From: Bacteroidales bacterium
GTDB lineage: Bacteria; Bacteroidota; Bacteroidia; Bacteroidales; F082
DNA length: 64,000 nt
NCBI GenBank assembly: GCA_041554435.1
Contig: JBFFLX010000001.1
Location: forward strand, 377-64,376
Direction of reading: 5' to 3'
In this document: one piece after another, positions 16,031 to 34,552 of the stretch
Position numbering within the stretch: position 1 is the first letter of the stretch
Layout of the letters: the number at the start of each line of letters is the position of its first letter
The notes under the pieces: model-generated
What the model was told of the DNA's origin: nothing
Seen by the model: the letters and a program-made list of their open reading frames with translations, nothing else
The model's database searches: none
Made by a program: the position numbers and the translations under genes

Positions 16031-17203
16031 TTAGTTCATGCTATTTAAGGGGAACTTCATTCTAATTACAGCTCCTGCATCATCACTATTTAGGGCTTCT
16101 ATACTGCCATTATGCATATCTATTATCAACTTAACTGCGGCAAGAGAAAGTCCTGATCCTTCAATGTGTGATACATCTCCGGCACCAAAGAGTTCAAAAA
16201 TTCTATTCAAAGCCAAAGGGGAAAAACCAGGTCCATAATCTTGAATTTCAACACTAAGGTGTTGTTCATTACGTTTTACATTAATATCAATGGGTGAATT
16301 TTTACCTGAATATTTATATGAGTTTTCAAGTATAAGTATAATGCTCTGTCGTATAAGGTCTGAATCAGCGAAAATTAAGGGTTTTTCATCGTTTGAATAA
16401 TAATTAATGTCAATATCAGCATTGTTTTCTTTTAAGAATTTCTTTATGGCCGATTGAATTAGGTGATTAACCGATACTGAAAGGAAATCGGGTTGATATT
16501 TTTTTATTTTTAAACTGGTTATAAGGAGAGCCATATCGGAAAATTGCACTAGTCTTTCTGATACTTTTTTGAGGTGTTCGATATATTCGTTCTGACTAGT
16601 ATCTACTTCAGTTTCGCCTAATAGGTTTGCCAATCCGATTATACCATTTAAAGGTGTCCTTAATTCGTGACTAATTATTGAAAGAAAGTCGCTCTTTGTT
16701 TTATCCAGTTTCTCAAGTAGTGAGTTGGCTTGTTGTAATTGCTTTGTTCTTTCCCTGACTTTATTTTCCAACTCAATATTATTTTTTTCTAATTGTAGTT
16801 TTTGATCCTGTAGTTGTATTTGTGTCTTAACACGGGCAATTAATTCTGAAGAATTAAAAGGCTTTGTTATATAGTCCTGTCCACCGGTTTCGAATCCTTT
16901 AACAATACTTTCCATATCAGCCTTTGCTGTTAAAAAAATTACAGGAACAGAAGCGGTTTGTTCACTCTTTTTGAGATGTTTGCATACTTCATAGCCATCC
17001 ATTTCAGGCATCATAATATCGAGCAATATCAAGTCGAAATTTTGTGTATTAGTAATCTTTAATGCCTGTCGGCCATTTTGAGCATATGCTATTTGATAAC
17101 CATTGCTAGAAAGTATATTTCCCAGGATTTGGATGTTTCTAGCAACATCATCAACAATAAGTATTTTTTTCTTTTCTCCTACTTCAGGTCTGCTATTAGT
17201 CAT
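16031..17203 (-). CDS. Hybrid response regulator-histidine kinase (N-terminal REC, coiled coil, HisKA, HATPase_c)
   Basis: REC features: ILIVDD, DLILLDIMMPEMDG, FLTAKAD. H-box ISHELRTPLNGIIG. G-boxes DYGPGF and GSGLSL. Confidence 0.88.
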   Translation of the reverse strand: MTNSRPEVGEKKKILIVDDVARNIQILGNILSSNGYQIAYAQNGRQALKITNTQNFDLILLDIMMPEMDGYEVCKHLKKSEQTASVPVIFLTAKADMESIVKGFETGGQDYITKPFNSSELIARVKTQIQLQDQKLQLEKNNIELENKVRERTKQLQQANSLLEKLDKTKSDFLSIISHELRTPLNGIIGLANLLGETEVDTSQNEYIEHLKKVSERLVQFSDMALLITSLKIKKYQPDFLSVSVNHLIQSAIKKFLKENNADIDINYYSNDEKPLIFADSDLIRQSIILILENSYKYSGKNSPIDINVKRNEQHLSVEIQDYGPGFSPLALNRIFELFGAGDVSHIEGSGLSLAAVKLIIDMHNGSIEALNSDDAGAVIRMKFPLNSMN

Positions 17204-20254: not shown

Positions 20255-22753
20255 TTAAATAATTAGTGTTTTATTTAATTCATCATCAAACGATTTAATG
20301 TAGTTTTCAATTCCTACTATATCAAAATGGTTTATTAAATCTGATAGTTCTTTTGAATAATTTATTAGTTGTTCATTGTTAAATTCATTTGCAATTTTTA
20401 TAAGCAGTTTATTAAAAGAATTAAAATGGTCAAACATATTCGACTCCTTGGCCATTTTAAATTCATTCTTCTGAAGGTCATATAACTTGTTTAATAAATC
20501 TCTGTCAAAAGTTTGAAAGTTCAATTTAAGTTCCGAATTTATTTTCGAATTATTATCGTAAGAGGATTCTCCATTTCCAATAATTTTGATGTGCTCGTTA
20601 GATTCAATTTTATCGGAATGTAGAATTTCAATATCATTGAATTCTAATATGAAAGTACTTCCTTGTCCTATCTTACTTTCCAGTTTAATATTGCCATTCA
20701 GAACTTCAACTAATTTTTTTACAATAGCCAATCCTAATCCCGTACCTTCAGTGTTGCTGGAGGATTCAATCTGATAAAATGATCTGAAGATATTTTTCTG
20801 TTCTTTTTCAGAAATTCCAATTCCATTATCTATTACTTTTATTATTAAATCAGTTGATTCCTTATTCTTGTTTTTTGCGGCAATATCCACTTCAATTAAT
20901 CCATTATCAGTAAACTTTATGGCGTTACTTATAATGTTAAGTAATATTTGTCTAAGTCGTAAATCATTGAAATTTATAGTGTTAGGAGTATTTTTATTAA
21001 TGTTGAATTTTAATTTGTTGTTTTTCTCTTTGGCTCTGTTTTCAAAAATTAAATTTAGTTCATCACATAGGCTTTTAATTTCCAAAGCTTTGTATTTAAC
21101 AAGAATTTTCCCGGCTTCTATTTTCGATAGGTCTAAAATATCATTAATAAGAACCAACAATATTTTTGATGAGACTTTAATATAATTTAAATAATGCTTT
21201 TGAACTTCACTTTTTAGTGTTTTTTCCAGTAATTCGGTAAAACCAATTACACCGTTTAAAGGTGTTCTTATTTCATGGCTCATATTAGCCAGAAATTCAC
21301 TTTTGATATTATTACTTTTTTCTGCCTCTTGCTTTGCCAAATATAAATCGTCGGCTAACTTTTTTAAGTTAAATCTGGCTCTTTCTATTTCTTCATTTTT
21401 CCTTTTCAGAATCCTATTCAACTTATTTTTTGATTCCAGATATATAGCCAGAAATGATATTGCTCCCATTGCAATTAAAAAAGCCGCAAAAATCAACCAT
21501 GAATATACTCTTTGTCTTTTTAATTCTAACTGATTGATTTTGGACTTTTGTTCCAACAATGAAATTAAATTTTCTTTTCTTTCACTTTCAAAACTAATTT
21601 TCAATCTCGCGATTTCCTTTTGCAGTGAGGAATTCATAATAGAGTCTCTATACATATTAAAAGTATCAGAATGCAATAGGGCAAGTTGATAATTTTTCTT
21701 TTGATAGTATGTATTTCGCAAACCTTTATGTGCATCTTTAATAGTTTCTTTTGCTCCTATTTTTTTTGCAATTACAAGACTTTTTTGGATAAAGTTATTT
21801 GCCAAATTTGTTTTGCCAAGTTTATAATTTATTAATCCTAAATGCAAATAATCCTGCGCCTGGAAAATTTTATCTCCATGATTTAGGTTAATGTTTAAGG
21901 CTATTTGATAATATTTTAAAGCTTGCTCGTATTCTCCTTCTTCTTCATAAACAGCCCCTAAATCCGAATAACAAATTCCTTGTCCTTTCAGGGATTTAAT
22001 TTTTTTGTTTAAATCCAGCGAAAGCCGATAGTATTCTTTCGCTTTTTTAAAATCTTTTTTCTGGAAATAAATATTCCCCAGATTATTCAGATTTATTGCT
22101 CTTCCAAGATCATCGCCACGCTCTTCTTCAATAGAATAACTCTGTTGGAAATATTTGAGGGCTTCATCCGGATTGCCAATAATAAGTTGGATATTTCCGA
22201 GGCTATTTATCGCTACAGCCTGACTCTTTTTGTTGTTTGTTAATTCGGCCAGAGTAAGTGCTTTTTGATGGTATTCAATGGCTTTCGTATAATCATCAAT
22301 TCTACGATACACAACTCCCAGATTATTGTTGAAAATAGATCCTAGTTCTTTGTTACCTGTTTTTTCAGATATTTCCAATGCAAACTGATGGAACATAATT
22401 GCCGTGGAGTATTCGCCATTATTTCTTTTTATAACCCCTAAATTGTCGGCGAGTTGAGATAAAAAATCAAGCATGCCTGTTTTTTCCGCCAATTCTCGTG
22501 CCCTATTAAGGTATTTCTGTTTCCTGAGTGTGGAATTAATATCACCGGAATCAATAGAAACAATGTTAATATAATCCAGAATTAATATGCTGTCTTTTGT
22601 CCTGGGATTATTTTCTTCTGTTAATATGCTGTCTGAAGTCGGGTATTCGTTATAAGTTCTCTGGCTTAACACATTAGAAAATGTGAATAAGTTTCCCCAA
22701 AAAATCAATAATACTACAAGTCTTATAATTAGCATATTAGTGGATAAAATCAA
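20255..22753 (-). CDS. TPR-repeat transmembrane sensor histidine kinase
   Basis: TPR repeats, TM helix [24 protein letters not shown]-box [15 protein letters not shown] and [10 protein letters not shown]. The C-terminal tail is homologous to that of the neighbouring kinase. Confidence 0.88.
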
Positions 22754-22819: not shown

Positions 22820-24103
22820 CTATGCTAATATAGCAATTAATACCGGCTCGTCTCCACTATTGTCAATTTCAGTTATTATTGTTTTATAAAATGTGTTTTT
22901 AATAAATTCTTCGCCTTTAATTCTGATGGGGATGTAATTTTCGCCATGTCCATGAGCAAAACCTTTATCAGTTTTTTCCACCAAAACGGTTTGTTGTTTC
23001 CCTATGAAACTTTTGCGGTATTCGAGTCGGTGTTGCTCTGAGGCATTTCTAATTATTTCACTTCTTGCTGTTTTTATCCTGTCGGGAATATGATCAGGAA
23101 ATCTTTCTGCTCTGGTTCCTTTTCTTAATGAATATTTAAAAGTGTGAATATGACCAAACTTCACTTTTTTTATGAAATTTAAAGTTTCGTTAAATTCCTC
23201 CTCAGTTTCACCGGGAAAGCCCACAATTATATCTGTGGTTACATTAAATTCAGGGTACTTTCTTCTTACTCTTTCTATTAAAGTGCCAAACTCATCGGCT
23301 GTATACATTCGTCTCATGCGTTTTAGAATGTTTTCAGAACCGCTTTGAAGACAAATATGCATATGAGGAGTTAGTTTTGGGTTTTCAAACAAACGGAAAA
23401 AACTTTCGGAATAACCATCGGGTTCAATTGATGAAATTCTTACTCTGAAGTCACCCGGAATGTCTAATATTTTTTCCACTAAGGCTTCAAAATCCACGCC
23501 TTCGTATTCATATCTTCCCAGATTTACACCTGTTAAAACAACTTCTTTAAAGCCATAATCAATAACCTTTTTTATATTGCTAATTACCTCACTTACAGGC
23601 CTGCTTGTTGCTCGCCCCCTTACTTTTGGAATAATACAATATGTGCAAAACTGATTGCAGCCATCCTGTATTTTTATAAAACTTCGTGTGTGAAATGTAT
23701 CTTTTGCGGCTTCATAACCAAATAAATCTTTATCGTAGTTGTCGGGAGCAACAATTTCGCCTTTGGCATGCGCATCAATTATTGAAAATACTGATGTTTT
23801 ATGATCATTATCAATCACATAATCAACACCTTCTTTTTGTTGTAATTTTTCCTTATAATTTGTTGCCATGCATCCGGTTACAACTGTAATGGCATCTTTA
23901 TTTTTTTTGTTGGACCGGCTTATCTCCTGACGGGATTTGTGGTCGCTTTGGTTGGTAACAGTACAAGTATTAATGATATAAACATCAGCTTCATCATTAA
24001 AGTCAACTATATCGTAACCATTGGAAGAAAATTGAGAAACTATCGAATCGGTCTCAAAAATGTTAAGGCGACAACCAAGCGTTTTAAATGCAACTTTTTT
24101 CAT
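22820..24103 (-). CDS. mtaB: Radical-SAM methylthiotransferase, MtaB type (tRNA ms2t6A37)
   Basis: MTTase N-domain (FKTLGCRLNIFETD), radical SAM CNQFCTYC, and no long linker. The MtaB subtype call is from memory. Confidence 0.8.
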   Translation of the reverse strand: MKKVAFKTLGCRLNIFETDSIVSQFSSNGYDIVDFNDEADVYIINTCTVTNQSDHKSRQEISRSNKKNKDAITVVTGCMATNYKEKLQQKEGVDYVIDNDHKTSVFSIIDAHAKGEIVAPDNYDKDLFGYEAAKDTFHTRSFIKIQDGCNQFCTYCIIPKVRGRATSRPVSEVISNIKKVIDYGFKEVVLTGVNLGRYEYEGVDFEALVEKILDIPGDFRVRISSIEPDGYSESFFRLFENPKLTPHMHICLQSGSENILKRMRRMYTADEFGTLIERVRRKYPEFNVTTDIIVGFPGETEEEFNETLNFIKKVKFGHIHTFKYSLRKGTRAERFPDHIPDRIKTARSEIIRNASEQHRLEYRKSFIGKQQTVLVEKTDKGFAHGHGENYIPIRIKGEEFIKNTFYKTIITEIDNSGDEPVLIAILA

Positions 24104-24114
24104 ATGCCTTGTTA

Positions 24115-25536
24115 TTAGTTAAGCAAGATTCCTTCTGTGGAAAAAGGTACTGCCGATTCAACTTTTACTTTAACATATTGTCCAATTAAACCATCATCAT
24201 CCGATTTAAATCGAATAATTATTTTACCTTCGGTAAGAGCCGATAAATATTCCTGATTTCTGTCGCGTCCCCTAACTAAAACCTTATATGTATTTCCAAT
24301 CATTTTTTTATTGTAATCGTAGGAAGTTTTTACTAATTCCTCTGTTAATTCATGGAATCTTTCTTTTTTTATTTCTTTACTCACAGTGTCTTCCCATTTT
24401 GAACTTACTGCACCGGGTCGAGGTGAATACTGGGCAATATAGGCCATATTATATTTAAACTCACTCATTATACTTTTAGTGTTTTCAAATTGTTCATCAG
24501 TTTCGCCCGTGAAGCCAACAATTATGTCAGTAAAAATTGTTGCAGTTGGTAACATTCTTCTGATACTGTGAATAATTTGTCGGTATTTTTCCATCGAATG
24601 CTTACGGTTCATATTCTCTAGAACCTGATCATCGCCTGATTGAACAGGGATGTGGATTTGCTTTGCAAGACATTTATACTTTGCTATTACTTCCAAAACA
24701 TCATCATTCATATCCCGGGGGTGAGGGGAGGTGAAATATACCCAAAAATCTTTGCTGCTTTCTTCTCCGTATTTACCTATCTCCTCTAATAACTGAGCAA
24801 AATTTATTTCTTCGCCCTTCTTGTCGAGACCATAGGAATTAACATTCTGACCTAAAAGTGTAATCGATTTATAATCATTATCAACAAGTCGTTTTAGTTC
24901 TTTAATTATTTCCGATGAGGGACGCGATACTTCTCTTCCTCTGGTATAGGGTACTGCACAATAAGTACAAAATTTATCACATCCGTTTTGTATGGGAATA
25001 AAGGCTTCAAAGCCGGAACTATATTTGGGTGTAATACTCCAAAAATCTTCTATATTTTCGTTTTTAATTACTTTAGAAGGTTTGGGATTATTAATTTGAA
25101 CATCATTCAATTTGAATTCAGCAGGATTAACCGATTTGTTATTCTTCTCCAGATCCTGAAATCCTGCATCCAACGATTGTGTGCTTGCAGGGCTTACAAT
25201 ACCATACTGACTAATCATTTGTGGTAGTTCAGGCAAGTCGCTCATTTTGAAAACTAAATCAAATGTTTTTAAAAAGTTTTCCTTGTCGGCAGGTAAAACA
25301 CAACCGGATACAAATGTTAAGAGGTTCTTTTTCTTTTTCCATTTGTTCCATTTGCTAATTCTGGAATATACTTTATTAATACCCTTCTGTCGAACTGAAC
25401 ATGCAATTATTCCCAGCAAACTGGCCTCTTCTTCTACATCAGTCTCTTCAAAACCCATCTTATCAAGGATTTTTTGAACTCGTTCGCCATCAGAAATGTT
25501 CATCTGGCAACCTAACTGAATTATATGATATTTCAT
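24115..25536 (-). CDS. miaB: Radical-SAM methylthiotransferase, MiaB type (tRNA ms2i6A37)
   Basis: QLGCQMNISDGE, ACSVRQKGINKVYS, radical SAM CDKFCTYC and a C-terminal TRAM-like end YVKVKVESA. Confidence 0.78.
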   Translation of the reverse strand: MKYHIIQLGCQMNISDGERVQKILDKMGFEETDVEEEASLLGIIACSVRQKGINKVYSRISKWNKWKKKKNLLTFVSGCVLPADKENFLKTFDLVFKMSDLPELPQMISQYGIVSPASTQSLDAGFQDLEKNNKSVNPAEFKLNDVQINNPKPSKVIKNENIEDFWSITPKYSSGFEAFIPIQNGCDKFCTYCAVPYTRGREVSRPSSEIIKELKRLVDNDYKSITLLGQNVNSYGLDKKGEEINFAQLLEEIGKYGEESSKDFWVYFTSPHPRDMNDDVLEVIAKYKCLAKQIHIPVQSGDDQVLENMNRKHSMEKYRQIIHSIRRMLPTATIFTDIIVGFTGETDEQFENTKSIMSEFKYNMAYIAQYSPRPGAVSSKWEDTVSKEIKKERFHELTEELVKTSYDYNKKMIGNTYKVLVRGRDRNQEYLSALTEGKIIIRFKSDDDGLIGQYVKVKVESAVPFSTEGILLN

Positions 25537-25701
25537 TCTTACCTACTTTTTTATAATGTAAACGCCTGATTAAAAGATATTTGACTATTTACATATCCGG
25601 GTGGGCAAAAGTACATATTTTTATTTATAACCATTACAAATAATCTAATCAAAATGTTAAAAAAAGTGTTATTTTTATAATTATTTTTCAATGAGAAAAT
25701 T

Positions 25702-26199
25702 ATGGCAGAAAAAGGTAATGAAACAGAAAATCTTTCGAGGATTAAAGAAATTCTTTTTGGAGAGGATTTGACCAGTATAGATGAGAGATTAGAAAATTTT
25801 AAAAAAGAAAATGCAGTTGCTTTTCAGGATATTAAGGATTATTTCAATAAGCAAGCGGAAGGGCTTGAGAAACTAATAAATGAGAATCAAAAACATTTTG
25901 AAACCAATGTATTAAAAACCGAAAAACTTCAGGATAATTTTAAAGAAAAAGTTGAGCAGGATATTGCCAATATGCATCTTGAAATTAATAAGGAAAAGAC
26001 TGAGGTTCAAAAGATGATCCAAAATCTTGAGATCCAAAACGAAGAAAAATTTGAAGGCCTGATAAAAAATATAAATAATTCTGTAACTGAATTAAAAGAT
26101 CTCCTAAATAGTAAGTTTGATGAACTAAATGATAAAAAAACTGACTCTGCGGTAATAGCCGAATTATTCCAAACCATGGCTGATAAACTTAAAGCTTAA
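25702..26199 (+). CDS. Small coiled-coil protein, first gene of the GTPase operon
   Basis: 165 aa, K/E/N/Q-rich with heptad-like periodicity, and no TM helix or signal peptide. Confidence 0.6.
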   Translation: MAEKGNETENLSRIKEILFGEDLTSIDERLENFKKENAVAFQDIKDYFNKQAEGLEKLINENQKHFETNVLKTEKLQDNFKEKVEQDIANMHLEINKEKTEVQKMIQNLEIQNEEKFEGLIKNINNSVTELKDLLNSKFDELNDKKTDSAVIAELFQTMADKLKA

Positions 26200-26213
26200 C
26201 CAAAATAATTATA

Positions 26214-27950
26214 ATGACTTCTAAAGGTGATAATAAGGGAATATTTTCAGGTTTATCAGACATAAAGATGAATGAGTTACGCAAGATGATTATTGGCCTC
26301 GATAATGAGGACCTAAAGCGTCTTGCCTTATTTGTTAATGATCCGGAAGCATTTTCTGCAGAAATTAGTGAACTTCTGCCCAACAGCATAAAATTAATGC
26401 TTGAGAGCGGCAAAATTTCATACGATGAACTTGTTCCTGTTTTTGAGACAGTTCTTCAGGATAGTATTAAAAAAGATCCACAGAGTCTGGCAAAAATTCT
26501 ATTTCCAATTATGATGCCCGCAATTAGAAAGGCCGTTTCTGAGGATTTAAAGAAAATGCTTGACTCAATCAATTCAACACTGGAGCACAGTTTTTCACCA
26601 AAAAGGATAGGCTGGAGATTCCAGGCAATGTTTAGCGGTAAGTCCTATGCCGAAATTGTATTGTCCAATGCGTTTATATTCAGGGTAAAACAAGTTTTTC
26701 TTATACATAAAAAAAGTGGACTTCTCCTAAACGATGCCTTCGATAATTCTTTGTCGGTTACCAAAGATTCCGATATGGTATCTTCAATGCTAAGTGCCAT
26801 TAAAGATTTTGTTCAGGACTCTTTTGATGTGGACCAGAGTAATGAGTTGAATACTATTAATGTAGGTAAGTTTAATATTTGGATAGAACAAGGCCCTGAA
26901 GCAATTATTGCAACCATTGTTGAAGGTGATGCTCCAGCATATTTGAGAGAACAAATGAAAGATGCCATCGAAAAAATACATCTTAGATATTCTCTCGAAT
27001 TGAACAAATTTGAAGGAGATACTGCCGTGTTTGAAAAAACAAAGCCCTATCTCGAGGCTTGCTTACTTAGTGAACATAAAGAAAGTAAAAAACGAAAACC
27101 AATTACCATAATTGTAATCTTTATATTAATTATTCTGGGCCTGGGCTATTTATCCTACATTAGTATTGATAGATATTTAAGGATAAGTGATATGGAAGAT
27201 GCATTAAATAGTCAGCCGGGCATATTAATTACTGATGATGAAACTAATAATGGTAAACGGGTATTTATAGGTTTGCAGGATCCTCTGTCGGTTAACCCAT
27301 ATACGATTGCAAGTCAATATGGTTTTGATACTTCTAATGTGAGTTTTAACTTTAAAGGCTTTATATCACTTGATAATTCATTAGTATTAAAACGAGCTTA
27401 TTCCATTTTGAATCCTCCTGAAAAAGTTATATTGCGTATTGAAAACCAGACTCTATTTGTAAGTGGTGAGGCTGAAGAGGACTGGGTAAATATGGCAAAG
27501 TCAAAATATTACTCAATTCCAGGGATTGATAAACTCGATTTGTTGGAGTTAAATATATTAACCAGTAATACCATTATCGAAAAAAGAGAGTTTTCCTTAG
27601 AGGAATATTATTTTGAGTTTAAGTATTTGAAAGTAGAACTAACGGATAATCAAAAGATTAAGTTCGCAAATTTAATAAATGAGGTTAATCAGGTATTAGA
27701 CTTTAATTTCTCACAGGATTCAATACCTGTTATTGTGGTAATAGGACATACCAGTTACGAAGGTAATCCTGAAGCAAACAAAAAAGTAGCCTTTGATAGA
27801 GCTCAGGAATTTATAAACCTAATGATTAATGCAGATATTCCAATGGAAGTTCTGGTTCCGAAAACTGATTATGTGGAAGATATAGATTATAAGTATCCGG
27901 TTAGATCCGTATCATTTAAAGTTATTTATTCAAAACCTGAAGACTTATGA
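26214..27950 (+). CDS. Single-pass membrane protein with a cytoplasmic Roadblock/LC7-like segment and periplasmic BON-like and OmpA-like domains
   Basis: TM helix at residues ~296-316 after a KKRK stop-transfer. Residues ~152-257 (FIFRVKQVFLIHKKSGLLL...MVSSMLSAIKDFVQDSF...NIWIEQGPEAIIATIVEG) look Roadblock-like. C-terminal VVIGHTSYEGNPEANKKVAFDRAQEF is a degenerate OmpA-family motif. Confidence 0.65.
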   Translation: MTSKGDNKGIFSGLSDIKMNELRKMIIGLDNEDLKRLALFVNDPEAFSAEISELLPNSIKLMLESGKISYDELVPVFETVLQDSIKKDPQSLAKILFPIMMPAIRKAVSEDLKKMLDSINSTLEHSFSPKRIGWRFQAMFSGKSYAEIVLSNAFIFRVKQVFLIHKKSGLLLNDAFDNSLSVTKDSDMVSSMLSAIKDFVQDSFDVDQSNELNTINVGKFNIWIEQGPEAIIATIVEGDAPAYLREQMKDAIEKIHLRYSLELNKFEGDTAVFEKTKPYLEACLLSEHKESKKRKPITIIVIFILIILGLGYLSYISIDRYLRISDMEDALNSQPGILITDDETNNGKRVFIGLQDPLSVNPYTIASQYGFDTSNVSFNFKGFISLDNSLVLKRAYSILNPPEKVILRIENQTLFVSGEAEEDWVNMAKSKYYSIPGIDKLDLLELNILTSNTIIEKREFSLEEYYFEFKYLKVELTDNQKIKFANLINEVNQVLDFNFSQDSIPVIVVIGHTSYEGNPEANKKVAFDRAQEFINLMINADIPMEVLVPKTDYVEDIDYKYPVRSVSFKVIYSKPEDL

Positions 27951-28441
27951 TAAAAAAGAAAGTAGTAATGTTGGGTTCATTTGCTGTTGGTAAAACCAGT
28001 TTGGTACAGCAGTTTGTGAACAGTATTTTCTCAGAGAAATATCAAACTACTATTGGAGTTAAAATAGATCAGAAAACTGTGAATATTGATGGACAGGATA
28101 TAAATCTTCTTTTATGGGATATTCATGGAAACGATGATTATCAGAAAGTTAAGCCTGCTTATTTGATGGGATCATCGGGTTGTTTTATTGTTATTGATGG
28201 TACCCGCAGGGCAAGCCTGGATGTGGCAAACGAACTTATTGAAACAGTGAATAAAACTGTTCCTAAGGCTTCAGTAGTAGTATTGATAAATAAACTGGAC
28301 CTGAAGGATGATTGGGATATTAATGCCGATGATATTAGCGACTTTAAATCCAGAGGTTTTACGGTGATAGAAACAAGCGCAAAAACAAATAATGCAGTTG
28401 ATGAAGCATTTGATACTATTACTAAATTAATGATGAATTAA
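27947..28441 (+). CDS. Ras-superfamily (Rab/Rup-like) small GTPase
   Basis: G1 GSFAVGKT, G2 YQTTIGV, G3 WDIHG, G4 NKLD, G5 ETSAK. 164 aa. An ATGA start/stop overlap joins it to the upstream gene. Confidence 0.88.
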   Translation: MIKKKVVMLGSFAVGKTSLVQQFVNSIFSEKYQTTIGVKIDQKTVNIDGQDINLLLWDIHGNDDYQKVKPAYLMGSSGCFIVIDGTRRASLDVANELIETVNKTVPKASVVVLINKLDLKDDWDINADDISDFKSRGFTVIETSAKTNNAVDEAFDTITKLMMN

Positions 28442-28443
28442 GT

Positions 28444-29949
28444 ATGCTGAAAAATCTCCCCAAGGAAATAGTTAAATATTTAGTAGAAGAACTACCTCCG
28501 TTTACAGGTTTGTTACTTGTTAAAACAGATGAGAACGGAATCATAGAAGGTTATTATGGTCAGTATATAGATTATTTTACTGAAGAGCCCAAAGCCGGAA
28601 AAAATATTCATGATTATAGTCCGGCACTTTTTTCAATGATACCCCCTTTGGTTTCTCCTATGGTATTGAATAATATTAAATCTACAACTCAAAATTATGC
28701 GGATATTCATATTATTGAAACTTCAGCCGAGGCTTATTGGGTGATTTTCATGGATCAAACAAATGAAGTTGAAAAAATAAGAGATATATTACAACAAATA
28801 AATTCAAAGAAACTAAAAATTGAATCAGGAAATATAAGCGAAGAAAAGAGTTTGTTTAATGTTTTTGAATATCTTCAACTCAGGGTTATAGGAGATAAAA
28901 TTGCCATTATTGAAAGTCCTGTACCTCTATGGTACAAAAGGTTAAATCACGATTATATTTCTGATGATAATATAGTTTATACTGAACTATTTCCTTATTT
29001 AGAAGTATTTGAGTACGAAGCCAACGATTTTTGGTCAACTATGATTAATGGAAGACTTAAGTCAGGAATATGGACCGAGTCGACTGCCGATGGCAATGAT
29101 ATTACCCTAAATGCTACTGCTATTTATTATAATGGTGAAAAATATCTTTTTATACAAGAAGTTGAAGAGGGTTTAGACGGAACTCAGATGGCATTGCAAA
29201 TGGCAAGAGATCAGAAACTTGCCTATGAAAAACTGGAAAAAGCCGAGAGGAAATTAAAAACTCTTTTAGAATATAAGGATAAGTTTGTGTCGATAGTATC
29301 ACATGATTTGCGCTCTCCGGTAGCAGCAGTTTTAGGCATTGCAGAACTTTTATTAAATGATAAAGAAGAAATAGAAAAACTTTCAGATTTCAATAAGGAT
29401 ATGCTTGTGAGCATCAAAGAAGAAATGCTTCGCTTGCTCGACTATAATGATAAACTCTATCATTGGTCGAACCTTGAATTGGGAAATTTCGAGATTGTTA
29501 AAACTAAGTCTGATTTGCTAAAAATTATTGAAACTGCCAAACGAACGGCTAATCAGAAAATGCAGGCTAAAAATATCAGCTTCTCAACAAATCTGAAGAA
29601 GCCCCTTCACGTAAATGTTGATACAACTTTATTCCTTCAGCTAGTTAATAACCTTATGGCAAATGCCATAAAATTTACACCAGTAAATGGAAATATTTCA
29701 ATTGATGTTAAACATACAAAGAACAATATAGAATTTGCAGTTATTGATTCAGGCGTTGGAATGCCCCAGGAAATATGCAAAAATATTTTCAAAGGCTTTG
29801 CCCGAAACAGTACTGTAGGTACAGGAGGTGAGAAGGGTACCGGATTAGGCTTGGGAATTGTAAAGAAAATAATTGATGCCCATGGATTTCAAATAAAAGT
29901 TGAATCTAAAATAAATGAAGGGAGCCAGTTTATTATATCAATTTCATAA
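28444..29949 (+). CDS. Soluble sensor histidine kinase with an uncharacterised ~250-aa N-terminal region
   Basis: H-box VSHDLRSPVAAVLG, N-box NLMANAIKFT, G-boxes DSGVGM and GTGLGLGIVKK. No TM helices. Starts 2 nt after the GTPase stop. Confidence 0.88.
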   Translation: MLKNLPKEIVKYLVEELPPFTGLLLVKTDENGIIEGYYGQYIDYFTEEPKAGKNIHDYSPALFSMIPPLVSPMVLNNIKSTTQNYADIHIIETSAEAYWVIFMDQTNEVEKIRDILQQINSKKLKIESGNISEEKSLFNVFEYLQLRVIGDKIAIIESPVPLWYKRLNHDYISDDNIVYTELFPYLEVFEYEANDFWSTMINGRLKSGIWTESTADGNDITLNATAIYYNGEKYLFIQEVEEGLDGTQMALQMARDQKLAYEKLEKAERKLKTLLEYKDKFVSIVSHDLRSPVAAVLGIAELLLNDKEEIEKLSDFNKDMLVSIKEEMLRLLDYNDKLYHWSNLELGNFEIVKTKSDLLKIIETAKRTANQKMQAKNISFSTNLKKPLHVNVDTTLFLQLVNNLMANAIKFTPVNGNISIDVKHTKNNIEFAVIDSGVGMPQEICKNIFKGFARNSTVGTGGEKGTGLGLGIVKKIIDAHGFQIKVESKINEGSQFIISIS

Positions 29950-32692: not shown

Positions 32693-33409
32693 ATGAAAAG
32701 ATTCATATACTTTTTTGCTGTAATTATTTCAACTTCCATATTGTTTTCTTCATGCCAACCATGTATCGATGGAATGGGTCCTGTTACCAAAGAAACAATT
32801 GAATTTAAAAAGTTTAGTAAACTGGATTTGCGGATACCAGCGAAACTAACCATAAAACTTGGAAATGATCATGTAGCAACTATTTCTTCCAACGATAATA
32901 TTTTGAAAAATATAAGAGCAAAAGTGAAAGGAAAAACTCTTGTTATTGGTTCAAAAAATTGTATTTCCAGCGCTGATGAACTGAAAATTGAATTGATAGT
33001 TAATAGTTTAGATGAAATAACTCTAAATGGTTCAGGCAGTATTAAATCGGTTTCTCAGCTTAATGCTGATGATATGGAATTGCAAATAAATGGTTCAGGT
33101 AATATTCTTACTGAAGTTTTTGCAACTGATTTGAAAGCAACAATAAATGGCTCAGGAAACATAATAATCAATGGAACTGTGAAAGACGCCGATATAGAAA
33201 TAAACGGTTCCGGCGATTTTAAAGGGATTGCTTTAGATGCATTTACATCCGATATTGAAGTTAATGGATCCGGTGATGTACGTCTTAATGTAAAAAATGA
33301 TTTATCAGTTAAAATCAAGGGTAGCGGCTCAGTTTACTATCTTGGTGAACCAAAAATAAGAACAAAAATTGACGGGAGCGGAGAGGTTAAAAAATTAAAC
33401 AGCAAGTGA
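32693..33409 (+). CDS. DUF2807 (head GIN domain) lipoprotein
   Basis: Lipobox LFSSC and seven (I/L)xGSG(D/N/S) beta-helix-type repeats. Confidence 0.75.
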   Translation: MKRFIYFFAVIISTSILFSSCQPCIDGMGPVTKETIEFKKFSKLDLRIPAKLTIKLGNDHVATISSNDNILKNIRAKVKGKTLVIGSKNCISSADELKIELIVNSLDEITLNGSGSIKSVSQLNADDMELQINGSGNILTEVFATDLKATINGSGNIIINGTVKDADIEINGSGDFKGIALDAFTSDIEVNGSGDVRLNVKNDLSVKIKGSGSVYYLGEPKIRTKIDGSGEVKKLNSK

Positions 33410-33505: not shown

Positions 33506-34552
33506 GTGAATAAACGACCACTACTTTTAGTTTACATCATATTATTATTAGTTGGCAACGTTTCTGCTCAAATAGGCGGTAATTATGCATATCCTTTTTT
33601 GGAAAAACCGGTTTCGGCCCGTGTAGCGGCTTTGGGAACAAATTTCTCTTCAATAGATGATAATGATATAAATCTTGGCTTTGTAAATCCATCTCTTATA
33701 AATAGCAATATGAATAATGCTATTTCTTTGGCTTATGTGAATTTCTTTTCCGAGATAAATTATGGTTTTGCCCAATATGGAAGAAGCTTTAAAAAGGCCG
33801 GAAACTTTATTGGTACATTACAATATTACGATTATGGTACTTTCGATTATGCCGACGAAGGAGGAACTCAGGGAGGTACTTTTGGGGCACAGGACTTTGC
33901 CTTTAATCTGGGATGGGGAAGACAACTGGATTCTAACTTTTCCATAGGTGCCACCGCAAAAATTATTTACTCATATTACGAATCCTATAATTCGTTCGGA
34001 CTTGCCGTTGATGTTGCAGGTAGTTATAGATCCAATAATGACTGGATGATGTCGTTGATTGCCAGTAATATAGGTATGCAGATGAAAACCTATGTTCCCG
34101 GAAGCAGAGATCCATTACCATTTAATATGCAGTTTGCTATCGCTAAAAGATTAGAACATGTACCTTTTATGTTCACATTAGTTTATGATCATATTGAGAA
34201 ATGGGACCTTACTTACGAAGATCCGAATAATCCTTCAGGTACTGTGGATCCAATTACCGGGGAAGTAACACCCAAATCAGGGTTCACAAAATTTGGTGAC
34301 CAGTTATTGCGACATTTTATTGTTGGCGGTGAAATTTATATTGGAAAAAATATAGTTCTGAGAGGTAGTTATAATTATCGTCGTCGTGCCGAACTTAAAG
34401 TGGAAGATAAGTTGGGTATGGTTGGCTTTAGCTGGGGAGTGGGGATTAGAATTTCAAAATTCAAAATTAATTACTCACGATCTACTTACCACCTGGTTGG
34501 ATCACCAAACTATTTGACTTTGGCTTTTAACCTGGATTCATTCCGAAAATAA
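33506..34552 (+). CDS. porQ: Type IX secretion system outer-membrane protein PorQ
   Basis: Signal peptide, then GGNYAYPFLEKPVSARVAALG...DDNDINLGFVNPSLIN, which I recognise as the PorQ family N-terminus. 348-aa beta-barrel. Confidence 0.7.
   Translation: MNKRPLLLVYIILLLVGNVSAQIGGNYAYPFLEKPVSARVAALGTNFSSIDDNDINLGFVNPSLINSNMNNAISLAYVNFFSEINYGFAQYGRSFKKAGNFIGTLQYYDYGTFDYADEGGTQGGTFGAQDFAFNLGWGRQLDSNFSIGATAKIIYSYYESYNSFGLAVDVAGSYRSNNDWMMSLIASNIGMQMKTYVPGSRDPLPFNMQFAIAKRLEHVPFMFTLVYDHIEKWDLTYEDPNNPSGTVDPITGEVTPKSGFTKFGDQLLRHFIVGGEIYIGKNIVLRGSYNYRRRAELKVEDKLGMVGFSWGVGIRISKFKINYSRSTYHLVGSPNYLTLAFNLDSFRK

Follow-up and report, generated by a model that had tools for sequence, protein, structure and literature searches.

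A probable Bacteroidota member of the Group 1 Rup GTPase signalling system, with predicted folds for its membrane protein and two predicted PAS-like modules on its kinase

The gene for a small Ras-like GTPase lies between those for a membrane protein and a histidine kinase in a compact cluster of four genes (Table 1) within a 64 000-nucleotide stretch of the genome of a Bacteroidales bacterium (GenBank assembly GCA_041554435.1, contig JBFFLX010000001.1), which is referred to, at its full length, as the window. The locus raises the questions of which signalling system these genes form and of whether a signal passes from the cell envelope through the GTPase to the kinase or in the opposite direction. 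The first can be answered with a probability of about 95%: the locus encodes, in a member of Bacteroidota, the Group 1 Rup system of GTPase signalling, because its gene order, its 164-residue GTPase lacking the glutamine found at position 61 of Ras (Q61) and the glutamine-bearing N-terminal region of its output protein all match that group. An earlier note, made from the sequence alone, had taken the architecture to be undescribed; it was already recorded as the Group 1 Rup neighbourhood by Wuichet and Søgaard-Andersen (2014; Genome Biol Evol 7:57, PMC4316618), and its experimental characterization was not found in the literature.

In that survey the prokaryotic small Ras-superfamily GTPases were split into the MglA and Rup families, and Group 1 Rup was recognized by the loss of the catalytic glutamine of the G3 motif, by a coiled-coil cytoplasmic protein encoded in the neighbourhood and by a protein, DUFX, with a transmembrane segment and often an OmpA domain. 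The output protein of the group is typically a GGDEF/EAL protein or a histidine kinase, with an N-terminal region that contains an invariant glutamine (PMC4316618). The neighbourhood is given in Table S2 of the same work as DUFY>DUFX(:OmpA)>Rup>, with GTPases of 158–181 residues in the group as a whole; the entries from Flavobacteriia, with GTPases of 161–165 residues and no OmpA call, match the present locus. The survey also drew an analogy between Group 1 Rup and the conservons, proposed that a trans-acting glutamine is provided by an unidentified GTPase-activating protein (GAP), did not predict Rup proteins to work with MglB homologues and noted that no Rup protein had been characterized by 2014. 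Literature searches for later work on Rup proteins, for Group 1 locus tags and for the domain combination returned only the 2014 paper and passing citations of it.

Gene 3 encodes a single-domain Ras-superfamily GTPase, within the limit of 240 residues set for the group, with eukaryote-like G1–G5 motifs. Pfam Ras is matched over residues 5–162 (E = 1e-35) and Roc with E = 8e-25, and the motifs read GSFAVGKT (G1), a threonine in switch I, DIHG (G3, within WDIHGN), NKLD (G4) and SAK (G5). The earlier note was right about a GTPase with all five motifs and overlooked that the residue at the Q61 position is an asparagine; the positions of Ras G12 and A59 are occupied by phenylalanine and histidine, respectively. 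Gene 3 thus encodes a GTPase without the catalytic glutamine. The position is mostly glutamate among its homologues and glutamine in two of 65 loci (L005 and L072).

The remaining traits of the group are also found here. Gene 1, by its composition, is a coiled-coil DUFY upstream of DUFX; gene 2 adjoins the GTPase gene and encodes a DUFX protein with a membrane helix and an OmpA-like C-terminus; and the fourth gene encodes a signalling output with an invariant glutamine in its N-terminal region (Q117 and Q252). No MglB is coupled to the GTPase, Robl_LC7 being absent from all four proteins at E ≤ 1, although a related fold is predicted for DUFX. Searches of the four proteins against Pfam and NCBIfam gave no match to Robl_LC7, BON, PAS, HAMP or DUF742, in keeping with the claim that the locus has neither a DUF742 protein nor a stand-alone MglB. 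The taxonomic spread of homologous loci overlaps the list in PMC4316618. Nothing essential at this locus differs from the 2014 description, to which the following are added: predicted folds for DUFX (longin/Roadblock-like, two BON-like and OmpA-like); two predicted, separable PAS-like modules on the output N-terminus; and, as far as sequence comparison goes, outputs of the class III cyclase, sigma-54 activator and hybrid or HisKA_3 kinase types, two natural gene fusions and a covariation of the histidine at Ras position 59 (His59) with one of the modules.

Table 1. Positions of the genes, domains and adjoining region in the window. The pLDDT (predicted local distance difference test) scores are those of the structural models.
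Feature	Position	Strand	Remark
AT-rich intergenic region, 165 nt	25537..25701	+	Ahead of gene 1; beyond it a divergent radical-SAM methylthiotransferase gene
Gene 1 (DUFY), 165-aa soluble coiled-coil protein	25702..26199	+	Composition, position of homologues
Gene 2 (DUFX:OmpA-like), 578-aa single-pass inner-membrane protein	26214..27950	+	
Gene 2 residues 1-144, conserved cytoplasmic helical region	26214..26645	+	Invariant columns; pLDDT 36-67
Gene 2 residues 145-285, cytoplasmic alpha/beta domain, core of DUFX, predicted longin/Roadblock topology	26646..27068	+	
Gene 2 residues 297-318, transmembrane helix	27102..27167	+	Kyte-Doolittle 2.57; flank net charge N +3, C -2
Gene 2 residues 337-449, two BON-like alpha/beta units, predicted periplasmic	27222..27560	+	pLDDT >90
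Gene 2 residues 466-573, OmpA-like domain, divergent peptidoglycan-binding motif HTS...N...RA	27609..27932	+	
Gene 3, 164-aa Group 1 Rup small GTPase	27947..28441	+	Start overlaps gene 2 stop (ATGA)
Gene 4, 501-aa soluble histidine kinase, output protein	28444..29949	+	
Predicted PAS-like module A, gene 4 residues 1-127, exit helix with Q117 and N120 (QQxxN)	28444..28824	+	
Predicted PAS-like module B, gene 4 residues 137-261, exit helix with Q252-x-A-R255	28852..29226	+	
Gene 4 residues 278-500, HisKA (H287 in SHDLRSP) and HATPase_c	29275..29943	+	Pfam, alignment

The four open reading frames (ORFs) are separated by 14 nt, a 4-nt overlap and 2 nt, an arrangement that both the ORF list and a direct reading of the sequence reproduce exactly as first described, with the ATGA shared by genes 2 and 3 at 27947-27950. 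The gene 2/gene 3 and gene 3/gene 4 pairs are translationally coupled at this locus. A gene 2 profile was scanned against one genome per GTDB species, which gave 80 loci; ORFs were called in these and assigned by iterated hidden Markov model (HMM) searches seeded with the proteins of the window. The same-strand order of gene 1, gene 2, gene 3 and a protein with the N-terminal region of gene 4 was found in about 55 of the 80 loci, most of the others being cut by contig ends, and the loci with conserved order come from at least eight phyla. The set includes Bacteroidota, Cyanobacteria, Planctomycetota, Acidobacteriota, Nitrospirota, Zetaproteobacteria (Mariprofundus), Alphaproteobacteria and Gammaproteobacteria, among others, and gene 2 adjoins the GTPase gene in most phyla. 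By this comparison the four genes form a real co-conserved unit, and the operon proposal, which the earlier note had made to depend on conservation of the four-gene order, withstands that check.

It is scarcely credible, then, that the genes are neighbours by chance or belong to an anti-phage defence island. PADLOC gives a weak match to ZorA tails for gene 1 (E = 5e-5) and one to ZorB for gene 2 (E = 5e-4); they span only the coiled-coil and OmpA-like segments, no MotA/ExbB channel and no effector is present, and the defence reading was rejected, the matches to ZorA tails and to the OmpA-like part of ZorB being judged generic. The order conserved across phyla, the existence of gene fusions and a GC content equal to that of the flanks argue against both chance and defence.

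The output protein at this locus agrees with its first description as a soluble kinase with an unassigned N-terminus: HisKA (E = 4e-10) and HATPase_c (E = 2e-23) are matched in Pfam, hydrophobic segments are absent and residues 1–260 have no Pfam match, PAS included. An alignment of 52 Bacteroidota homologues of gene 4 shows no variation at H287, in the N-box or in the G-boxes. It had been suggested that residues 1–250 be compared with MglB, LC7 and longin folds; two PAS-like domains were found instead. The model of residues 1–262 (mean pLDDT 80.8) contains two PAS-like units, each followed by a helix, and displays the five-stranded antiparallel sheet, intervening helices and exit helix by which a PAS domain was to be recognized. 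A Foldseek comparison of this region with the PDB gave 123 matches at E ≤ 1e-3, led by a Brucella LOV-PAS histidine kinase (E = 1e-6), with FixL PAS-PAS, phytochromes and bHLH-PAS proteins among the others. At the level of the predicted fold, the N-terminal region would consist of two divergent PAS-like modules, A and B.

The exit helices of both modules carry a conserved glutamine, either of which may be the one expected of a Group 1 output. Q117 and N120 in module A and Q252, A254 and R255 in module B are all invariant within the 52 Bacteroidota homologues. Across phyla, Q117 and N120 are present in at least 85% of the 13 aligned A modules, the exception being one divergent Bacteroidales homologue; in the 21 aligned B modules A254 and R255 (of the QxAR motif) reach at least 85% and Q252 is invariant, which makes it the one residue of the two exit helices without any variation. 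When aligned to each other with hhalign the two modules are collinear over 92 columns with the conserved glutamines in register, at a probability of 1.2%, and paralogy is not claimed.

The modules, which HMM match coordinates show to be independent, are found in front of very different domains. Module A occurs alone when fused to class III adenylate/guanylate cyclases (Cyanobacteria and Mariprofundus) or to a hybrid kinase, and module B alone when fused to HisKA_3 kinases, hybrid kinases, a PAS-sigma54 activator or (PAS-)GGDEF-EAL proteins; in Planctomycetota a response-regulator gene then follows that of the module B HisKA_3 kinase. Both modules are fused in one kinase in Bacteroidota and are found on two consecutive genes in Cyanobacteria. 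In the cyanobacterial loci L041:6010-8135 and L070:8063-11114 the GTPase gene is followed by that of a module A–cyclase and then by one combining module B with a HATPase kinase or with GGDEF-EAL. One cyanobacterial GTPase may therefore drive two outputs, since two consecutive effector genes follow it in L041 and L070. In Desulfobacterales (L042, L046, L048, L049, L053 and L073–L075) the GTPase gene, with that of a 458-residue sigma-54 activator behind it, is divergent from genes 1 and 2, and the 146-residue N-terminus of these activators is a candidate third input module, because the module A and B HMMs give no match to it.

Two natural fusions bear on the contacts between the components. A 365-residue protein of a Nitrospira metagenome-assembled genome (MAG; Nitrospira sp. 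RBC069, L069:7791-8888) joins the GTPase (residues 9–175) to module B (residues 223–361) with no enzymatic domain, and in a Methylococcaceae MAG (L060:3719-5827) the N-terminal motif and a shortened coil of gene 1 are fused in frame to gene 2 (702 residues). These sequences hint at contact between the GTPase and module B and between the gene 1 and gene 2 proteins, respectively.

The signal most likely flows from the core formed by genes 1, 2 and 3 to the output, since the core is constant and the domains behind modules A and B interchange, which is the usual signature of outputs. In the opposite direction, the PAS-like modules of the kinase would detect a signal inside the cytoplasm and pass it to the GTPase, which would itself be the output and remodel an envelope-anchored complex of the gene 1 and gene 2 proteins. 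PAS folds are indeed classical sensor domains, and OmpA-like, MotB-like and TagL-like anchors belong to envelope machines; moreover, the conservon GTPase was argued in PMC4316618 to be the output, no response regulator being present, and there is none in this operon either. Such a reversal is nevertheless unlikely: the enzymatic and DNA-binding domains behind the modules vary widely against an unchanging three-gene core, as expected of interchangeable outputs with a common input, the Nitrospira fusion dispenses with any enzymatic domain, and the response-regulator gene next to the planctomycetal kinase gene implies ordinary downstream phosphotransfer. The statement that the operon itself contains no response regulator holds, and none consistently adjoins it in the Bacteroidota loci.

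The gene 2 protein is single-pass, as had been claimed, with one hydrophobic helix at about residues 297–318 and a positive N-flank, which predicts a cytoplasmic N-terminus. Its model has a mean pLDDT of 73; the helical N-terminus (residues 16–141) is poorly defined, and an invariant motif, P-x-M-x-P-A-x-R-K-A-V, lies within residues 1–144. Residues 145–285 are modelled at pLDDT 46–84 with helices at 145–153, 186–203, 242–264 and 271–281 and strands at 154–165, 171–176, 214–217, 220–226 and 230–238, a predicted alpha-beta-beta-alpha-beta-beta-beta-alpha-alpha topology that is compatible with both the Roadblock and the longin folds. The two folds share a beta-beta-alpha-beta-beta-beta core, to which an extra N-terminal helix is typically added in Roadblock domains and two C-terminal helices in longin domains.

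The best PDB matches of the whole gene 2 model in Foldseek were longin domains, namely AP-1 sigma3 (9ddt_B, E = 1e-4, template-modelling (TM) score 0.66), AP-2 sigma, Sec22b (TM score 0.60–0.67) and zeta-COP, with E values of 1e-4 to 3e-3; they were placed on residues 145–285 by topology, the output containing no query coordinates. No MglB or LC7 structure is among the top 50 matches. Of the Roadblock/LC7-like fold put forward in the earlier note, the predicted topology and the longin matches favour the broader outline, whereas the specific likeness to MglB/LC7 found no counterpart among those matches nor any significant sequence match. Five sub-threshold Pfam hits among 70 DUFX members (Intu_longin_1, E = 0.002; Robl_LC7, E = 0.004; Fuz_longin_1 three times) make Roadblock/longin the sole recurrent theme among the faint per-member hits. 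Profile HMMs of DUFX built from 41 cross-phylum sequences and from 29 diverse representatives found nothing meaningful among PDB sequences, the hhalign probability of the 41-sequence profile was below 1% against human AP2 sigma2 and DYNLRB1 (target sequences approximate), and similarity of residues 145–285 to the Pfam Robl_LC7 and longin families did not reach significance. The modelled fold is probably Roadblock/longin in the broad sense, leaning towards longin, and homology is not established.

The cytoplasmic domain is widespread: among 1.84 billion representative sequences, 4969 clusters (50% identity) match at E ≤ 1e-3 and 1179 at E ≤ 1e-30. One matching protein, P0246, is 2171 residues long and contains three matched stretches of the domain, unlike the usual form of about 580 residues.

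It is conceivable, if improbable, that DUFX is a ligand-binding or scaffolding sandwich rather than a GTPase regulator, in which case nucleotide exchange would be intrinsic and the PAS-like modules would be the real GAP, supplying glutamine in trans. The lack of significant sequence similarity to Roadblock/longin families and the moderate confidence of the model favour that reading, as does the glutamine that is strictly, or nearly strictly, conserved on both modules, given the trans-glutamine GAP proposed in PMC4316618. A mere scaffold is harder to reconcile with the gene's translational coupling to the GTPase gene here and its adjacency to it in most phyla, with a very strong conservation of the cytoplasmic domain (54% mean column identity across phyla) and with fold matches and faint Pfam hits that converge on GTPase-associated longin domains and on the Roadblock/longin theme.

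On the other side of the membrane, each of the two BON-like units was modelled as alpha-beta-beta-alpha-beta. The segment VILRIENQTLFVSGEA, previously singled out as BON-like, lies within a beta-hairpin of pLDDT above 90, and the gene 2 model matches the BON proteins DolP (7a2d), BonA (6v4v), OsmY (8rjx) and Rv0899 (2l26) in Foldseek; Pfam BON gives no match. The C-terminal domain has fold matches to Pal, OmpA-C, MotB-C and TagL (TM score 0.6–0.7) and also to YfiB, and its Pfam OmpA score of 18.8 bits over residues 475–543 lies below the cut-off of 27.2. Its peptidoglycan-binding motif was rightly called degenerate. Most homologues outside Bacteroidota keep an aspartate, as HTD, HSD or HAD in G[HY][TSA]D..G..N..LS..RA, and those of other phyla pass the Pfam OmpA threshold, with 50 bits for L053 as an example; in the Bacteroidota clade (residues 513–534, 27750-27815) HTS replaces the aspartate-containing triplet and (V/I)A..RA replaces LS..RA, Arg529 and Asn522 being retained and Ser514 occupying the aspartate position throughout. 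In canonical OmpA-like domains this aspartate contacts diaminopimelate. Some homologues from Planctomycetota and Desulfobacterota are wholly devoid of the OmpA-like part.

Several bacterial proteins resemble this periplasmic region. Rv0899/ArfA (2l26) combines BON and OmpA-like domains, as predicted for gene 2, and YfiB (4zhw) is an earlier case in which a diguanylate cyclase pathway is under the control of an OmpA-like protein. Rv0899/ArfA, DolP, OsmY, Pal, OmpA-C, MotB-C, TagL and YfiB all differ in having no cytoplasmic GTPase-linked domain, and the Bacteroidota motif here has a serine at the position of the conserved aspartate.

The product of gene 1 was expected to be a coiled coil, and its composition, free of proline, rich in glutamate and lysine and with Glu, Lys and Asp making up 36% of the residues, is coiled-coil-like; it matches no family in Pfam or NCBIfam, where the only hits, all weak, are to coiled-coil families. 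In about 75 of the 80 loci the gene next to gene 2 on its 5' side encodes a homologue, and the homologues share an N-terminal motif, I-[KR]-[ED]-[IL]-L-F-G, and a C-terminal helix, K.DR..LA.L...A..L. Similar short motifs lie near the starts of gene 1 (LSRIKEILFGEDL, 25732-25770) and gene 2 (ELRKMIIGLDNEDL, 26268-26309), with the common pattern hydrophobic-basic-x-hydrophobic-hydrophobic-x-G-x-D; in gene 1 this is the part of the protein most conserved across phyla.

In the GTPase, switch II varies with the type of module encoded next to it. Histidine at Ras position 59 (WDIHG, 28118-28132 in the window) is found in 42 of the 43 loci with module A and in none of the 12 that have module B alone; among the carriers of module A, it is missing solely from the Methylococcaceae locus L060, which has alanine. 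Counted by lineage, His59 is present in about three of the four lineages with module A and in none of the six with module B alone. The covariation is suggestive, though confounded by phylogeny.

Among eukaryotic proteins, the likeness of the gene 2 model is to the longin folds of AP sigma subunits, zeta-COP and Sec22b (by topology, at residues 145–285), and the faint Pfam hits of single DUFX members are to longin domain 1 of Mon1/Fuz and of Ccz1/Intu; sequence homology is not significant, and DUFX, unlike those regulators, is tethered to a bacterial envelope-spanning protein. Longin and Roadblock domains determine whether Rab, Rag and MglA GTPases are in the GTP- or the GDP-bound form, and their known GTPase partnerships include Mon1-Ccz1 with Rab7, Ragulator and GATOR1 with Rag, and AP sigma subunits and zeta-COP with Arf1. 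Catalytic residues are supplied in trans by several GAPs, such as the Arg/Gln dual finger of TBC RabGAPs and the Asn thumb of RapGAP. A GTPase without a cis-glutamine and partner modules with Gln and Asn (QQxxN) or Gln and Arg (QxAR) recall these GAPs, a likeness that is to be taken as a lead only; the residues here lie on a PAS exit helix, and neither fold nor sequence is related to TBC or RapGAP.

Taken together, these features are compatible with the following mechanism. The membrane protein, probably with the coiled-coil protein, would read a state of the cell envelope or one linked to peptidoglycan through its BON/OmpA-like periplasmic part, and its cytoplasmic longin/Roadblock-like domain would set the nucleotide state of the GTPase, as an exchange factor or as a GAP. 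The GTP-bound GTPase would dock on modules A and B of the kinase and alter its autophosphorylation, and the conserved glutamine on the PAS exit helices, with the asparagine or arginine, may be contributed in trans to complete the active site of the GTPase, in which case the effector would also time or terminate the signal. The phosphoryl group would finally pass to a response regulator encoded elsewhere. As a whole, this path from envelope sensor through GTPase and PAS-like modules to kinase has about an even chance of being correct. The stronger proposal, that DUFX is a true bacterial longin/Roadblock exchange factor or GAP built into an envelope sensor and that the PAS-like modules are a new class of GTPase effectors supplying glutamine in trans, is tentative and rather more likely to be wrong than right.

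A number of considerations weigh against this mechanism. The proposed regulatory domain was modelled with only moderate confidence and is unsupported by significant sequence similarity to the longin or Roadblock families; its longin matches, as stated, were located by topology; and longin, Roadblock, PAS and GAF domains are alike as alpha/beta sandwiches, so that fold alone cannot establish exchange-factor or GAP activity. Peptidoglycan binding by this gene 2 protein is uncertain and cannot be the universal input, because the Bacteroidota motif is without the aspartate and some homologues are without the OmpA-like part. The conserved glutamines lie on linker helices that lead into the output domain and could serve signal transmission instead, and the correlation of His59 with module A is confounded by phylogeny, with roughly four independent lineages against six. 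Finally, the literature searches yielded no biochemical or genetic study of any Rup system.

Apart from Group 1 Rup, the bacterial systems that most resemble the locus are the conservons and the MglA/MglB system. Like the present locus with its predicted Roadblock/longin-like domain, the conservons (CvnA-D; Mfp; PMC13015309) are operons that unite a Roadblock-type fold and a histidine kinase with a small GTPase of the Ras superfamily and contain no response regulator. Their GTPase, in contrast, belongs to the MglA family (Group 2) and not to Rup, CvnB is a stand-alone Robl_LC7 protein, and a DUF742 protein (CvnC) is present; the conservon kinase sits in the membrane, has a HAMP domain and ends in an LPxR motif, whereas the gene 4 protein is soluble and ends in ...QFIISIS. 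The coiled-coil partner and the BON/OmpA-like periplasmic part of the present locus are both absent from conservons. Membership was rejected on the absence of Robl_LC7, DUF742 and HAMP matches and of LPxR, and on G motifs that are Ras-like and not MglA-like.

MglA/MglB (RomR-RomX) likewise couples a bacterial small GTPase to a Roadblock-fold regulator, predicted in the present case, and is tied to proteins of the two-component type. MglA differs in its variants of the G motifs and in an intrinsic arginine, and MglB is a soluble Roadblock dimer, whereas here a Ras/Rab-like GTPase is accompanied by an alpha/beta domain built into the membrane protein of gene 2, with best fold matches to longin domains, not to MglB. 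A polarity or gliding-motility module of Bacteroidota comparable to MglA/MglB might be imagined from the combination of a small Ras-like GTPase with a Roadblock-like fold and from the occurrence of MotB-like peptidoglycan anchors in motility machines; an ORF about 3.5 kb downstream (33506-34552) was, in addition, guessed by eye to be of the type IX secretion or gliding type, and Pfam found nothing in it. This is very unlikely, given a Rup-type GTPase with Ras-like rather than MglA-type G motifs, the lack of MglB, housekeeping genes on the flanks and the occurrence of the same core in Cyanobacteria, Planctomycetota, Nitrospira and Zetaproteobacteria with second-messenger and transcriptional outputs; the MglA-like motility reading was rejected on the motif and domain tests.

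The flanking housekeeping genes encode radical-SAM methylthiotransferases and aconitase. On the 5' side, a tandem pair of methylthiotransferase genes (UPF0004 and Radical_SAM, one with TRAM; 22820-25536, minus strand) is divergent from the operon, and the intergenic region between this pair and the operon is presumed to be the operon promoter region; a sigma-70 consensus scan, which is unsuited to Bacteroidota promoters, found sites no commoner than in shuffled sequence, and no promoter was mapped. A scan for intrinsic terminators also returned sites no commoner than in shuffled sequence, and a 321-nt spacer separates the 3' side of the operon from the aconitase gene.

Other two-component genes are present in the vicinity. 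About 3 kb upstream, an 832-residue kinase with TPR repeats, HisKA and HATPase_c is encoded on the minus strand (20255-22753) with no adjoining response regulator. The sole REC-domain ORF detected in the window (16031-17203, minus strand) lies about 8.5 kb from the operon and encodes a 390-residue REC-HisKA-HATPase protein; no DNA-binding response regulator was detected. Downstream, the gene of a DUF2807 (GIN-domain) protein (32693-33409) precedes the plus-strand ORF at 33506-34552 mentioned above, the 348-residue product of which starts like a signal peptide and is not matched in Pfam at E ≤ 1e-5.

For this window, the outcome is mostly a correct annotation rather than a discovery. For the family, a gene-neighbourhood description of 2014 can now be phrased as residue-level hypotheses concerning the DUFX regulator, the QQxxN and QxAR effector modules and the switch II histidine, and a question twelve years old becomes directly testable through the fold assignments, the logic of two effector modules, the fusions and the covariation in switch II. 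If these hypotheses hold, the Rup system would represent a modular bacterial route from a GTPase to kinases, cyclases, cyclic di-GMP enzymes and sigma-54 activators, and a DUFX regulator acting with trans-glutamine PAS-like effectors would be a widespread bacterial counterpart of the eukaryotic pathways that lead from receptor and exchange factor through small GTPase and effector to kinase. Eukaryotic Ras-superfamily GTPases have been proposed to derive from ancestral Rup GTPases (PMC4316618). A longin regulator in DUFX, if true, would provide a prokaryotic precedent for the longin–GTPase pairing that organizes eukaryotic membrane traffic, and would make that partnership older than eukaryotes.

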